A stretch of 64,000 nt of DNA, from positions 85,438,001 to 85,502,000 of the forward strand of contig CM059432.1 of NCBI GenBank assembly GCA_030390025.1. Reading direction: 5' to 3'. The position numbers and the translations under genes are program-made. This stretch comes from Squalus acanthias (Eukaryota). The notes below the pieces were generated by a model. That model was not told the origin of the DNA and did not search any database. It was given only the letters and a program-made list of their open reading frames with translations. Positions 6,758-64,000 of the stretch are shown here, in pieces (the stretch's first letter is position 1; every line of letters starts with the position of its first letter).

Positions 6758-7530
6758 TGGGACCCGTATCCTAGCGGAAAGGGTAAATAGGGAAGTGGCA
6801 AAGGCTTTAAACTAGTAAGATGGGGAGAGGGAACTACAAGAAATGGAACCAGCCTAAATATAAACAAAACAGGAAAAGAGAACATCGGAAAAAATAAAGT
6901 AAGGGAGGACATTCATGGCAAGGGAATAAATAGAGTTATTGAACAGAAGTCTAAAAAGATGGTTAAACATAAAGTGAGAGGAAATCCTATTAAAAATGAG
7001 TTAAACTGTCTGTACAGCAATGCACACAGTGTCCGTAATAAAACAGGAGAGCTGGAGGCAATCATATGTTGCGAGGAACCAGACATAGTAGGGATTACTG
7101 AGACATGGCTACAGAAAAATCAGGACTGGGAATTAAACATTGCAGGGTATAACATATTTAGAAAAGATAGGGAGGGAAAAAGGAAAGGTGGAGTAGCTGT
7201 ACTTATTAGGGATAACGTAATGGCAGTGGAAAAAAGTGACACAGATATCAGCAAGACAAAAATAGAATCCATATGGATAGAGATAAAAGATAATAAAGGA
7301 TCGATTGCACTAATAGGCGTAGTCTACAGACCACCTAATAGTGGAAGGGAGGTGGAGGAAGAAATATGCAGACAAATTAGGGAAATGAGTAAAAAACATA
7401 GAATAATAATCATGTGGGATTTCAACTACCCCGATATTAATTGGACAGAAGTAGGTAAAGGGGATAAGGGAATGGAGTTCCTACAATGTGTACAGAACTC
7501 CTTTCTAACCCAATATGTAAAAAGCCCTTG
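6758..7530 (+). mobile_element. CR1 fragment: ORF1 end, junction and ORF2 apurinic-like endonuclease
   Basis: ORF1 end ...KALN*; LYSNAHSVRNK, GITETW, GVVYRPP, DFNYP. Confidence 0.85.
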
Positions 7531-20240: not shown

Positions 20241-22087
20241 GGCAGCGCGGGAGAATCTACTCATGCTACTGCAATGTTTCGGACTTGCGACAGCGCCAGG
20301 AGGCCGAGTAGTGGCACTTTTGAAAAGTACCCCTACTGACTAAATCGGCGTTCGCGGACTCGGACTCGGACTCGGGATCGGCAACATTGCCGGTTATTTG
20401 AGAGGAGTTTTCGGAGCACTCGGCGTTCGCGGAGACTCGACTGCGACTCGGCAACATTGCCGGTTATTTGAGAGGAGTTTTCGGAGGATGATTTTTGCCG
20501 GTTAAGCGAGAATTCCGGTTATTTGGGTGCCGGATAAACGAAAGTTTCCTGTAATTGGGGATTTGATAGCCAGGGGGACAGACAGGCAGTTCTGCCACCG
20601 TCGACGTGAGATCCGTATGCTGTGTTACCTCCCTGGTGCCAGGGTAAGGCATATCACGGAGAGGGTGCAATAAATTCTGCGGGAGGAAAGGGAAGAGCCA
20701 GAAGTCGTGGTCCATGTCGGAACATTGGGAGGAAGAGGGTTGAGTTCCTGCAGTCAGAGTTTAAGGAGCTAGGGAGCAAGTTAAAAAGCAGAACCTCAAA
20801 GGTAATAATCTCTGGATTACTCCCAGTGCCATGCATTAGTGAGCGTAGAAATAGGAGGATATGGCAGGTTAATGCGTGGCTAGAGACATGGCGCAGGAGG
20901 GAGGGCTTCAGATTCCTGGGATGTGGGACCAGTTCTGTAGCAGGAGAGACCTGTTCAAGATGGACGGGTTGCACTTGAATAGAGCTGGGACCAAAATCCT
21001 TGCGGGCAGGTTAACTAGTGCTGTGGGGGAGGATTTTAACTAATTTGGCAGGGGGTTGGCACCAAGATGTAGTATTAAAAAGTAGAAATAAGGTGCAGAG
21101 AGGACTGGGAGAGACAGTTAGAGTTAGAAATAATACAGAATTAGGTGGGATCATAGAAAATACAAAGAGGTCTAAGTTAGGTTTGGAGTACATGTCTGTA
21201 AATGCACGAAGTGTGGTTAATAAGGTTGATGAGCAGCAGGCACAAATAGCCACGTGGGCATATGATGTAGTGGCCATAACTGAGACCTGGCTCAAAAAAA
21301 GCGAGCATTGGATGCTTAATATTCCTGGGTACAAGATATTCAGGAAAGATAGTGAAGGAAAAAAAGGAGGAGGGGTAGCAGTTTTGATGAAGAAAAATAT
21401 TACAGTGCTAGAAGGAGAGAATGTCCTTGAGGAGTCAAAGACAGAATCTATTTGGTTGGTGTTAAAGGAGTTATTACACTACTTGGTGTATTTTATAGGA
21501 TACCAAAAAGTGGGAAATGAGATAGAGGAGCAGATATGCAAAGACATTACTGAGAGGTACAAGAAATATAGAGTTGTGATAATAGTGGACTTTAACTACC
21601 CCAATATTGAACGGGGCAGTGATTGTGTTAAGGGCAGAGAAGGGAGGAATTTCTGAAATGTGCTCAGGAGAATTTTCTTGATCGTTAATGTTTACTGCCC
21701 AAAGAGGAAGAAGGCATTACTGGATCTAGTCCTGGGAAATGAAGTGGTTCAAGTGGAGAATGTCACAGTCAGGGTGCATCTCAGGAATAGTGATCATAGT
21801 ATCGTAAGGTTTAGATTAGCTATGGAGAAGGTAAAGGAGCAATCTAGAATAAAAATACTTAACTGGAGGAATGCTAATTTCAGCAAATTAAGGAAGGATC
21901 TGACCCGGGTAAATTGGAGTCAAAGATTGGCAGGCAGAAATGTAATGGAGCAATGGGCGACCTTTAAAAAGGAGATGGTTCGGATACTGTCTAGGTACAT
22001 TCCTAGAAGGGGGAAAGGGAGAGCAACCAAAGTCAGAGCTCCCTGGATGATGAAGGATGAAGCAGAAAAAGGGGGCGTATGACAGAT

Positions 22088-58329: not shown

Positions 58330-58762
58330 GATTAGGATTGGTGGCACCTTGGCTACCTTAGATTGGACCTCGGACGAGGCGCAAGATGCCCAACAGCAGC
58401 AGCAACAGCCTGCTGTGGAGAGACCTGCAGCTGGTGAGCAGAGAGGGGAACACCAGAGGGATTGAGCTCGCAGGAGGCACTACCTGCAAAACATGGTGTT
58501 CAGGCAAAGGCTCAGCTTCCTTGACCTCTCGAAAGAGCAGTGCTTCCGGAGGCTCAGATTGTCGTGTCAGGCGGTGGCAGACATCTGAAGCATCATAGAA
58601 GAAGACTTGCTCCCTGCTGGACCTAGTGGCCACGCATTACCAGTGGCTGTGAAAGTGACCACTGCCCTCAACTACTTTGCCTCCGAATCTTTCCAGGGTG
58701 CTACCAGAGACATATCGAGGATCTCCCAGTCGGCTTCACACAAATGTATAAGGCAGGTGACT
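58330..58762 (+). pseudogene. Harbinger transposase N-terminal fragment (different family)
   Basis: VFRQRLSFLDLSKEQCFRRLRL, LPVAVKVTTALNYFASESFQ, CIRQVT. Confidence 0.8.
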
Positions 58763-60219
58763 TGGATAATCTATCATCAGAACTCCACTCTATAAGTAAC
58801 CTGGAGTAATTAAAAGCACAGCCAGTCAACAAATGAAAATTAGGAGCACTGAGTAGAGGTGCTCAAAAGTCAATATTGTGATTTTATAGATTTTTGTTGC
58901 TGGTCCTCATCATTGAAAAGAGGATAGAATATGTATTCCTGTATATCTTGCGTTGTATGAACACTTTCTGTTAGACAGAAAAAAAACACTTTATTATGAG
59001 AATCTTGTATGTTTTGTAGCTAGGCCAATGGGATGCACATTCATCATCATCATTCTTTAAATGGTGAACTCAGCCATGAGGGAAAGGCACAAGCTGAATC
59101 AGTGTGCATATGCATATAGGGGGGCAAAAATCAGAAAGTGAGTCATCTGGACCACTCTCCTGATGGCCAGTTATAGAGTGGCAATATCAGTGATCAGGAA
59201 GGCGTTTCGATTCATGGGGCACTGGCACCAGTACTGGTGAAAAAGGGAGCTGTTCTGTTGGGAGGGACTCCACATAAACCGGGTTGGGACCAGTGTCCTG
59301 GCGAATCGAATAACAAGGGCTGCAGATAGGGCTTTAAACTAAAAAGGGGAGTGTCAGGTGAGGGGAATTTCGAAATCTAAAGAGAAAAGTCAAGGCAATG
59401 GAGCAGTGTAGCGATTTGGGTAAAAATAAGCAGTGTGACAGGAAGGGACAGAGAGTTTAACTGTAACAGTACTTCAGTGAATAAGGTGAAAGCAGGGAAT
59501 AATGGTAAAACATTTAAATTAAAGGCTCTTTTTTTGAATGCACGAAGCATTCGTAACAAGATAGATGAATTAGTTGCACAAATAGAGATAAATGGCTTTG
59601 ACGTAATAGCCATTACAGAGAAGTAGTGCAAGGTGACCAATGTTTAAGAAGGACAGACAAAAAGGAAAAGGAGGTGGCGTAGGGCTGTTAATAAGGGATG
59701 AGATCGGTACGGTAGAGATAAAAGATCTTGGCTTGGCAGATTGTGATGTAGAACTGGAATCAGTTTGGGTGGAGCTAAGAAACAGCAAAGGGCGGAAAAC
59801 ATTGGTGGGAGTTGTGTATAGGCCACCAAACAGTAGTGGAAATGTAGGGCACAGAATCAATCAAGAGATTAGAAGTGCATGTAACAAGGGCAATACGGTA
59901 ATCATGGGGGACTTTAATCTACATATTGACTGGGCAAATCAAATTACCCCTAATGGTGTGGAGGACAAATTCTTGGAATGCATGCGAGATGGTTTCCTGG
60001 ATCAGTATGTGGAGGAACCAACCAGGGGACAGGCTATTCTGGATCTGGTACTGTGTAATGAGAAAGGGCTAATCAATAATCTTGTGGTAAAGGGGCCTTT
60101 AGGGACAAGTGACCATAATATGATTGAATTTTATATTAAGTTTGAGAGTGATGTAGTCCAATCTGAAACTAAGGTCTTCAATCTAAACAGAGGAAACTAC
60201 AAGGGTATGAGGGACAAGT

Positions 60220-63200
60220 GCTAGTCAGAGTAGAAATAGGAGGATATTTCAAATGAATACGTGGCTAGAGGAATGGTGCAATGGGGAGGGATTCAAATTC
60301 CTGGGACATTGGAACCGGTTCTGGGGGAGGTGGGACCAGTACAAACCGGATGGTCTGCACCTGGGCAGGGCCGGGACCGCTGTCCTAGGGGGAGTGTTTG
60401 CTAGTGCTGTTGGGGAGGGTTTAAACTAAAATGGCAGGGGGTTGGGCACCTGAGCAGGGAGACAGAGGAAAGAGTGTCAGGAAGGGACAGAAGGTATGGA
60501 TTAAAAGGTAAAGTGTTAAAAAAGGAAAAAGCAGGAACTAAGTGTCACAAAACATATTTGAAAGTTCTGTATCTGAATGCACGTAGCATTCGTAACAAAA
60601 TGGACGAGTTAACGGCACAAATAACTACGTATGGGTATGATCTTGTGGCCATTACAGAAACATGGCTGCAGGGTGACAACGACTGGGAATTAAATATGCC
60701 AGGGTATTTAACAATCAGGAAGGACAGGCAGGAAGGAAGGGGAGGTGAGGTGGCTATGTTAATAAAGGAAGGAATCACTGTAATACAGAGAAATGATATT
60801 GGGTCAAAGGATCAGGATAATGAAACAGTTTGGGTGGAGATAAGGAATAATAAGGGGAAAAAAACACTAGTGGGAGTAGTATATAGGCCTCCTAATAGTT
60901 GCAACTCTGCTGGAAGAAGTATTAATCAGGAAATAGTTGGGGCATGTAATAAGGGAACAGCTATAATTATGGGGGATTTTAACTATCATATTAACTGGAC
61001 AAATCAAATTGGGCAGGGCAGCCTTGAGGAAGAGTTTATTGAGTGTATTAGGGATGGATTTCTTGAGCAGTATGTAACTGATCCTACAAGGGGGCAAGCA
61101 ACCTTGGACCTGGTCCTGTGTAATGAGTCAGGATTAATTAATAATGTCCTAGTTAAGGATCCCCTTGGAATGAGTGACCATAACATGGTTGAATTCCATA
61201 TCCAATTAGAGGGTGAGAAGGTTGGTTCTCAAACAAGCGTACTGAGCTTGAATAAAGGAGACTATGATGGTATGAGAGCGGAATTGATTAAAGTGGACTG
61301 GGAAAATAGATTAAAGGGTAAGACGGTACATGAGAAGTGGTGTTCATTTAAGGAGTTATTTTACAACTTTCAAAAAACATATATTCCACTGAGGAAAAAA
61401 GAGTGTAAAAGAAATGACAGCCATCTGTGGCTAAGTAAAGAAATTAAGGATAGTATCCGACTAAAAACAAGGACATATAAGGTAGCCAAACTTAGTGGGA
61501 GGATAGAAGATTGGGAAGTATTCAAAAGACAGCAAAAAGTAACTAAAGGATTGATTAAGAAAGGGAAGATAGATTATGAAAATAAATTAGCAAAAAATAT
61601 GAAAAACAGATAGCAAGAGTTTCTATAGTTATATCAAAAGAAAAAGGGTGGCTGAGGCAAACGTAGGTCCCTTAGAGGATGAGACCGGGAAATTAATGGT
61701 GGGAAACATGGAGATGGCAAAAATGCTGAACAAATATTTTGTTTCAGTCTTTACGGTAGAGGACACTAAGAATATCCCAACACTGGACAAACAGGGGCCT
61801 CTGGGGGGAGGAGCTAAATACGATTAAAATCACGAAGGAATTGGTACTCAGTAAAATAATGGGACTCAAGGTGAATAAATCCCCTGGACCTGATGGCTTA
61901 CATCCTAGGGTCTTGAGGGAAGTGGCAGTAGGGATTGTGGATGCTTTGGTAATAATTTTCCAAAATTCCCTGGACTCAGCAAAGGTCCCGGCAGATTGGA
62001 AAACTGCTAATGTAACACCCTTATTTAAAAAGGGTAGTAGGCAGAAGGCTGGAAATTATAGACCAGTTAGCCTAACATCTGTGGTGGGTAAAATTTTGGA
62101 GTATATTATTAAGGAGACAGTAACGGAACATTTAGATAAACATAATTTAATAGGACAAAGTCAGCATGGCTTTATGAAGGGGAAGTCATGTCTGACAAAT
62201 TTGCTTGAGTTCTTTGAGGACATAACGTACAGGGTGGATAAAGGGGAACCAGTGGACGTAGTGTATTTAGACTTCCAGAAGGCATTCGACAAGGTGCCAC
62301 ATAAAAGATTATTGCTCAAGATAAAAAATCACTGGATTGGGGGTAATATTCTGGCATGGGTGGAGGATTGGTTATCTAACAGGAAGCAGAGAGTTGGGAT
62401 AAATGGTTCATTCTCGGACTGGCAACCAGTAGCCAGTGGTGTTCCGCAGGGGTCGGTGCTGGGTCCCCAACTCTTTACAATCTATATTAACGATTTGGAG
62501 GAGGGGATCGAGTGTAACATATCAAAGTTTGCAGATGATACAAAGATGGAAGGGAAAGTAGAAAGTGAGGAGGACATAAAAAACCTACAAGGGGAAAGAG
62601 ACAGGCTGGGTGAGTGGGCGGAGATTTGGCAGATGCAATACAATATTGGAAAATGTGAGGTTATGCACTTTGGCAGGAAAAATCAGAGAGCAAGTTATTA
62701 TCTTAATGGCGAGAAACTGGAAAGTACTGCAGTACAAAGGGATCTGGGGGTCCTAGTGCAAGAAAATCAAAAAGTTAGTATGCAGGTGCAGCAGGTGATC
62801 AAGAAGGCCAACGGAATGTTGGCTTTTATTGCTAGGGGGATAGATTATAAAAACAGGGAGGTATTGCTGCAGTTATATAAGGTATTGGTGAGACCGCACC
62901 TGGAATACTGCATACAGTTTTGGTGTCCATACTTAAGAAAAGACATACTTGCTCTCGAGGCAGTACAAAGAAGGTTCACTCAGTTAATCCCGGGAATGAG
63001 GGGGTGGACATATGAGGAGAGGTTGAGTAGATTGGGACTCTACTCATTGGAGTTCAGAAGAATGAGAGGCAATCTTATTGAAACATATAAGATTGTGAAG
63101 GGGCTTGATCGGGTGGATGCGGTAAGGATGTTCCCAAGGATGGGTGAAACTAGAACTAGGGGGCATAATCTTAGAATAAGGGGCTGCTCTTTCAAAACTG

Positions 63201-63560
63201 AGATGAGGAGAAACTTCTTCACTCAGAGGGTAGTAGGTCTATGGAATTTGCTGCCCCAGGAAGCTGTGGAAGCTACATCATTAAATAAATTTAAAACAGA
63301 AATAGACAGTTTCCTAGAAGTAAAGGGAATTAGGGGTTACGGGGAGCGGGCAGGAAATTGGACATGAAGCTGAGTTCGGATCGGTCAAGGCCCTGTGGGT
63401 GGCGGAGCGGGCCCAGGGGCTGAGTGGCCGGGTCCTGCTCCTACTTCTTGTGTTCTTTAGATTTGAGGTTAGGATCAGATCAGCCATGATCTTATTGTAT
63501 GGCGGAGCAGGCTCGAGGGGCCGATTGGCCTACTCCTGCTCCTATTTCTTATGTTCTTAT
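60220..63560 (+). mobile_element. Young 5'-truncated CR1 (ORF1 C-terminus, near-intact ORF2, doubled 3' UTR)
   Basis: AAGT on both flanks; ORF1 FKFLGHWNRFWGRWDQYKPDGLHL...GLN*; ORF2 in 379-aa and 508-aa pieces. Confidence 0.93.
60420..63367 (+). pseudogene. CR1 ORF2 endonuclease-reverse transcriptase, broken by about two frameshifts near A/G runs (about 61600 and 61805)
   Basis: [60 protein letters not shown]. Confidence 0.9.
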
Positions 63561-64000
63561 AAGTTGGCCATGGTAGATTGGGAGACTACACTGAAAGGTA
63601 TGAAGGTGGACATACAATGGCTAACATTCAAGGAAATAATGCATAATTTGCAACAAACATATATTCCTCTGGGGCATAAAAACCCAAAAGAAAAAGTGAT
63701 CCAACCATGGCTAACAAAAGAAATTAAAGCTAGTATTAAGTCAAAGGAGGAAGCTTATAAAGTTGCCAGAAAAAGCGGTCAGCCTGAGGATTGGGATCTT
63801 TTTAGAAATCAGCAAAGGGGGACCAAGAAATTGATAAAGAAAGGGAAAATGGAATATGAGCACAAACTAGCGAAAAATATAAAAATGGATTGTAAAAGCT
63901 TCTATAGGTATGTGAAAAGGAAAAGACTGGCGAAGGTAAATGTAGGTCCTTTACAGTCAGAGAAGGGAGCATTTATAATGGGGAATGAGGAAATGGAAAA

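Follow-up and report, generated by a model that had tools for sequence, protein, structure and literature searches.

The window analysed here, a stretch of 64,000 nucleotides of the Squalus acanthias genome, harbors a copy of CR1, a dominant LINE in birds, reptiles and sharks. The parts of the element and the heptamer junctions of the window lie on the forward strand. The copy is 5'-truncated: the alignment with a full copy starts only at position 60218, within the 3' end of ORF1 (60218-60429), which encodes part of an SGNH esterase with the D-G-L-H motif and ends in G-L-N before the stop codon (PF13472, E = 0.003 on a piece of 69 amino acids). The complete ORF1 found in a sister copy aligns with the ORF1 esterase of PDB entry 4c1b (E = 1e-32). 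The -1 frame (60420-61613) then encodes a linker of 49 codons, an APE endonuclease (EN) and the region that follows it. The reverse transcriptase (RT) part of ORF2 (61760-63367; PF00078, E = 1e-29) is out of frame with this upstream part, and ORF2 of this decayed copy is broken 3' of 61613. A 3' UTR with a terminal stem-loop and a TTCTTATG-type tail (63368-63560) completes the element. The family shows the traits of the CR1 clade, namely an ORF1 with an SGNH esterase and an N-terminal CxxC…CxxC finger, an ORF2 with APE endonuclease and RT in a Pfam scan, a 3' end of short tandem repeats without poly(A), and 5' truncation. We found no relatives among viral contigs.

The element sits inside ORF2 of an older CR1 (59205-60217, continuing from 63561) and is flanked by AAGT at 60214-60217 and 63561-63564, a possible target duplication of four bases. 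Two stem-loop blocks that resemble each other follow in tandem in its 3' UTR (63395-63460 in the window), and all six sister copies read (L190-L195) share the arrangement. Outside the element, positions 58358-58760 resemble by eye Harbinger-type transposase-derived sequence.

At the junction of the two reading frames, ORF1 ends with TTTAAAC (60420-60426), which reads as the slippery heptamer U_UUA_AAC in X_XXY_YYZ phase with the codons of G-L-N and adjoins the TAA stop (60427-60429). A first-pass annotation of this DNA had described the heptamer in exactly this position, and re-reading of the sequence agrees. This heptamer is the predicted site of a -1 shift. A conserved G lies three bases 5' of it (60417, position -3), and the G-rich motif GGCAGGGGGTTGGG (60433-60446) follows with a core G-run at 60437-60441 (+11 to +15), a candidate stimulator. 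The annotation had also pointed to this G-rich tract; it is present and conserved, but its start lies six bases past the heptamer rather than five. As likewise described there, the -1 frame is closed by a TAG at 60402-60404, five codons 5' of the heptamer, and is open from 60405 to 61613 (402 codons) into the endonuclease, so that the entry into ORF2 must lie downstream of this TAG. The first ATG of the frame, at 60600, would truncate the endonuclease as had been claimed: it is residue 66, and the Pfam endonuclease match has already begun eight residues earlier, at residue 58. An ATG at 60431 was rejected as a start because it lies in another frame and occurs in only 2 of 30 close copies, the other 28 having GTG.

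Conservation of the heptamer and its codons

The heptamer at the end of ORF1 is confirmed and general, and no private accident of one copy. All 30 close copies carry it, followed by TAA or TGA. Among 161 distinct junctions from loci of the Squalus acanthias genome, 146 have the exact heptamer, 14 differ from it by one base and one by two; family N, a single copy that is one base off, enters this junction and codon tally only. ORF1 ends were located with a profile that leaves out the final residues. The exact heptamer is in phase with the codon of the catalytic Asp in 125 of 146 cases and has a stop codon next in 140. Split by how the loci had been chosen, with duplicates credited to the first locus seen, it occurs in 40/51 junctions of Pfam loci, 54/55 of protein-query loci and 6/6 of arbitrary stretches, all chosen independently of junction DNA, as well as in 45/47 loci picked by junction DNA or by hand and in 1/2 from the window. 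As a background we used stops closing open frames of at least 40 codons in 400 kb of arbitrary Squalus acanthias DNA. Any canonical heptamer stands in phase before 32 of these 5028 stops and TTTAAAC before 4, which may be CR1 junctions themselves.

The window itself contains two further families with the exact heptamer and a stop. The older, different CR1 family that hosts the insertion has it at 59333-59339 with TAA, and a third CR1 family has it at 6806-6812 with TAG and its endonuclease in the -1 frame. A fourth junction at 21034-21040 reads TTTTAAC, one base off the heptamer, and has probably decayed. No frame-0 family was identified in Squalus acanthias among 20 loci from a genome search with a distant esterase; the junctions detected in these loci joined the same pool.

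Beyond this genome, esterase patterns picked out 59 metagenome loci. In 36 of them an ORF1 end could be detected and the DNA continues past it, and 12 of these 36 junctions were taken as lineages. Left out of the lineage counts were L181 (heptamer present, no stop next, decayed), the frame-0 elements, L167, L172 and esterases with no endonuclease behind them. The 22 lineages counted are kin (sharks, birds), so the counts given below are not independent trials.

The first-pass annotation had held free synonymous variation at the terminal Leu-Asn codons against a frameshift. The survey of junctions found no such freedom: among the 18 lineages whose frame is intact, TTA encodes the terminal Leu in 16/16 and AAC the terminal Asn in 14/14. 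Five other conserved Leu columns each use three to five codons with a modal share of 0.27-0.79, and the modal codon of the other Asn column has a share of 0.72. The base 5' of TTA is T in 20/22 lineages, across codons for seven amino acids (A, G, S, C, H, T, P), at an overall third-position T frequency of 0.23. A stop codon comes next in 21/22 lineages and the G at -3, which is unexplained, is retained in 21/22, with a median between-lineage identity of 0.40 in the 70 bases upstream. The heptamer is thus conserved as RNA, beyond what the protein alone would demand.

In three metagenome elements, represented by one contig each, the heptamer is replaced by another shifty one and the -1 frame is open into the endonuclease. 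ORF1 of L131 ends CAG GGA AAC TAG (G_GGA_AAC), that of L142 CCT TTT TTA GGG TAA (U_UUU_UUA) and that of L136 TCG TTA AAC TAG (G_UUA_AAC). The first of these is the heptamer of PEG10 and the second that of HIV-1. Passages of a review on frameshifting place both G_GGA_AAC and U_UUA_AAC with the heptamers on which mammalian ribosomes slip most readily, and list a G_UU(A) heptamer for equine arteritis virus (PMC5009743). As a side observation, the ORF1 proteins P0094 and P0101 end in Q-G-N like that of L131 and probably belong to further G_GGA_AAC elements.

Could the protein sequence alone fix these bases? ORF1p might require Leu-Asn at its C terminus and ORF2p F-K-L at its N terminus, and coding in two overlapping frames can freeze codons. 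Leu-Asn is indeed very well conserved: it ends 73 of the 81 ORF1 proteins that end at the homologous place among the 120 homologues listed, which include proteins of named sharks, rays, coelacanth, frogs, turtles, lizards, a snake and a bony fish, and it ends all 50 such proteins among 115 from birds and reptiles. However, F-K-L could be translated only through an AUG-less entry into the -1 frame at this very place, which is frameshifting itself, and the deviating Gly-Asn and Leu-Gly endings occur exactly where another heptamer is used. We regard protein constraint as the least probable of the alternatives to frameshifting considered here.

Frame, linker and start codons between ORF1 and ORF2

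Among 130 copies in which the first endonuclease motif was found, the endonuclease lies in the -1 frame in 106, in frame 0 in 13 and in +1 in 11; the latter two classes count against frameshifting and are as expected of decayed copies. Family B fares worst, with 4/12 copies in -1 and 7/12 in frame 0 or +1, and the A and G runs 3' of its stop differ in length among copies. The -1 frame is usually open for just one to five codons 5' of the heptamer; five open codons were found in 26 of the 29 copies of the window family that have the endonuclease in -1. The linkers of 36-87 codons between heptamer and endonuclease are mostly open in -1 and contain several stops in the other frames.

The heptamer in phase, an ORF2 open in -1 and conserved synonymous positions, all present here, are canonical marks of a -1 frameshift signal. 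The conservation of the heptamer codons, the -1 frame kept open over linkers of this length and the switches to other shifty heptamers all agree with programmed -1 frameshifting. Very probably, CR1 LINEs of this clade make an esterase-EN-RT fusion by such a shift on the two codons that close ORF1, which is what the first-pass annotation had proposed for the window element. Most ribosomes would terminate when ORF1 ends and yield free esterase ORF1p. A minority, pausing with tRNA-Leu and tRNA-Asn on UUA AAC, would slip back by one base, so that the ORF1p-EN-RT fusion forms a small, constant share of the product, as for Gag-Pol. With less support, the G-run at the entry side of the ribosome may raise the slip rate. 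Such a fusion would tie RT to a lipid-related ORF1 particle and would change how ORF2 of CR1 should be annotated and expressed.

The start codons between the two ORFs leave room for another route. The annotation had stated that ORF2 has no upstream AUG, which holds for the window family (family A), with an in-frame linker ATG in 6/29 copies, but not for CR1 in general: in 11 of the 16 lineages whose linker is in -1, most copies contain one. Linker ATGs are absent from the four -1 copies of family B (0/4) and from L133 and L142; family F is represented in this survey by a single, decayed copy. As linker ATGs are common elsewhere, the missing AUG supports frameshifting for the window family only and the general case rests on the heptamer. 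A conserved in-frame AUG upstream of the endonuclease had been named as counter-evidence to frameshifting; such AUGs are common in the linkers, but at unconserved places.

The ATGs would allow termination-reinitiation or, where they are missing, AUG-independent initiation, with the G-run tethering the small subunit and ORF2p made as a free protein. Reinitiation may occur in those lineages with an ATG in the linker or right after the stop, as in four bird-type elements (L137, L138, L139, L145) with an in-frame ATG 5-6 bases past the stop, and AUG-independent initiation is thought to serve ORF2 of L1 according to the L1 passage of the frameshifting review (PMC5009743). Neither the invariant TTA (16/16) nor the T preceding it nor the switches between shifty heptamers would be explained by reinitiation, however. 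The positions of the ATGs vary, most copies of families A and B as well as L133 and L142 have none, and the linker beginning with F-K-L remains open in -1 5' of any ATG. We consider this route improbable.

ORF2 might instead be translated from altered or spliced RNA, the heptamer serving another RNA-level function such as polymerase slippage, processing, packaging or a splice signal. Family E has a slippery G-run of 7-12 bases just 5' of the heptamer whose length varies (e.g. L053, L077, L212, L227), and certain lengths of this run join ORF1 to ORF2 in one frame in individual copies. A propagated subfamily with such an in-frame fusion was rejected, since the fusion occurs in 3/34 copies of the G-run family that form no cluster; this rarity speaks for frameshifting. 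A run of eight G that varies in length 5' of the heptamer in one family fits altered RNA, as does the conservation of the G at -3 and of the downstream G-run, neither of which has a known role in frameshifting. The codon phase with ORF1 in 125/146 exact heptamers speaks against it, and the run in TTTAAAC is too short for polymerase slippage. Among the joints and indels listed for contigs from four sequencing runs, whose status as RNA is a guess, we found, as weak evidence against it, no GT..AG ends and no indel in the heptamer. Altered RNA is, in our view, highly improbable. Reinitiation, altered RNA and protein constraint each explain less than frameshifting does.

The G-run and the search for a stimulator

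Downstream of the heptamer, G is the commonest base from +11 to +15 in 91-100% of the 22 lineages, compared with 32-68% from +3 to +10. The Gly codon of the -1 frame at the G-run is GGG in 17/18 cases versus 41/180 in the rest of the region. This bias, together with the variability of the neighbouring residues, indicates that the constraint acts on the RNA. The G-run is thus a real conserved RNA signal, with stimulation of frameshifting as its candidate role. Like the heptamer, it is retained in lineages that range from sharks to birds.

Classical -1 signals have a stem-loop or pseudoknot 5-9 bases downstream of the heptamer. As a point against frameshifting, local folding, which covered hairpins, revealed no conserved fold 3' of the heptamer in 8 junctions or in the 22 lineages. 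Stability relative to shuffled sequences gave z scores of -1.56 to +1.56 in the 8 junctions and near -2 in two of the 22 lineages. The region behind the heptamer offers few C and U for pairing. A local hairpin was rejected as stimulator because the folds are no more stable than shuffles. Pairing with the element's own 3' end, as in luteoviruses, is unsupported in seven elements of five shark families: the own 3' end could pair in principle, but another site was always the better partner, and an element's own end performed no better than foreign ones. The ORF1 codons for C-L-P-G-A, a frequent top duplex, were rejected as a partner because they vary freely among lineages. A two-tier G-quadruplex pattern is present in 11/22 lineages versus 28/440 background windows, and a three-tier pattern in 1/22.

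Known frameshift systems and esterase-ORF1 relatives

The first-pass annotation had recognised U_UUA_AAC as the -1 slippery site of coronaviruses, with which the corresponding passages of the frameshifting review concur (PMC5009743). At the 1a/1b junction of coronaviruses and arteriviruses, this heptamer (G_UUA_AAC in equine arteritis virus) has the same phase as in CR1 and the polymerase lies in the -1 frame (PMC5009743). A pseudoknot or stem-loop follows a few bases downstream in these viruses. In CR1, local folding detected nothing conserved there, only a G-run at a constant distance; unlike them, CR1 is a non-LTR retrotransposon. CR1 thus seems to work like viral -1 frameshifting in its heptamer and frame, but not in the classical structure. 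A parallel to a linear motif is the nsp2 frameshift of arteriviruses, which has a C-rich motif about 10 bases downstream. The CR1 motif is G-rich instead and its binder hypothetical. The nsp2 frameshift is stimulated by a protein complex of nsp1beta and PCBP and not by a fold, according to the section of the review on arteriviruses (PMC5009743).

Gag-pol of retroviruses and LTR elements and PEG10 combine an abundant first protein with a minor RT fusion, as proposed for CR1. CR1 differs from them in its esterase ORF1 and APE endonuclease, and the Pfam scan found no protease or integrase domain. The fusion would therefore not cleave itself. Among LINEs, Dictyostelium TRE5-A and TRE3-A are APE-type elements whose ORF2 is said to depend on a -1 frameshift, but they belong to a different LINE clade in an amoeba, and the passage that mentions them gives neither heptamer nor stimulator (PMC5911963). 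Mammalian L1 resembles CR1 in its bicistronic RNA with a minor ORF2 product; its ORFs are separated by a spacer and the review passage describes unusual initiation (PMC5009743), whereas those of CR1 overlap in -1 at the slippery site.

The literature searched contains no report of frameshifting in CR1 and no answer to how CR1 translates ORF2; the original descriptions of CR1 lie outside this search and may hold an earlier remark. The LINE passages of the frameshifting review treat HeT-A, TART and L1 and not CR1 (PMC5009743), the terms frameshift and readthrough are absent from the main text of the esterase structure paper (PMC3905857), and the pertinent part of PMC4255032 mentions only frameshifts due to decay.

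Zebrafish ZfL2-1, an L2 element, has an ORF1 esterase (PDB 4c1b) homologous to that of CR1. Its ORF2 is in frame 0 behind UGA, whereas that of CR1 is in -1. Kajikawa et al. reportedly found in 2012 that ORF2 of ZfL2-1 is produced when the ORF1 stop is suppressed, so that a fusion results there too. Frame-0 loci were found here as well: five (L134, L135, L170, L171, L179) have ORF2 in frame 0 behind UGA and an endonuclease motif, and such loci fall across a branch of the endonuclease tree from CR1. In this tree (18 rows, midpoint-rooted, four of the rows short), 13 elements with a -1 junction lie on one side of a branch (97/98), apart from three frame-0 elements; L133, L135 and L171, which were too short, and family D were left out. 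The window element groups with bird elements, which we take to be CR1 and whose bird label is based on L147, with an ORF1 98% identical to a penguin protein. L167 and L172 have a -1 overlap of 44-45 codons with no canonical heptamer, which counts against the frameshift reading, though they lie outside the -1 group.

A wider reading is that the G-run is a linear stimulator that acts through a protein or the ribosome in place of a fold, and that LINEs with an esterase ORF1 generally make ORF2 as a Gag-Pol-like fusion, through slippage in CR1 and stop-codon readthrough in L2. This is tentative, and we think it rather less likely than likely. The binding protein could be ORF1p itself or a host binder of G-runs. 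If so, CR1 would have a regulated switch from ORF1p to RT that is conserved across jawed vertebrates and beyond, a kind of switch so far described for a few RNA viruses, and the fixed G-run may represent a new type of stimulator.

Some further observations concern the esterase LINEs. The five frame-0 loci and L140, L151 and L188 have the readthrough layout, with a frame-0 ORF2 directly after TGA, and in six of these eight the TGA is followed by C. L167 and L172 have a long Asn/Gln-rich ORF1 tail, and their first in-frame Met lies more than 110 codons in. Two CR1-like ORF1 proteins, P0007 and P0188, carry the NCBI labels Pseudomonas aeruginosa and Klebsiella pneumoniae and probably represent host DNA in bacterial assemblies.
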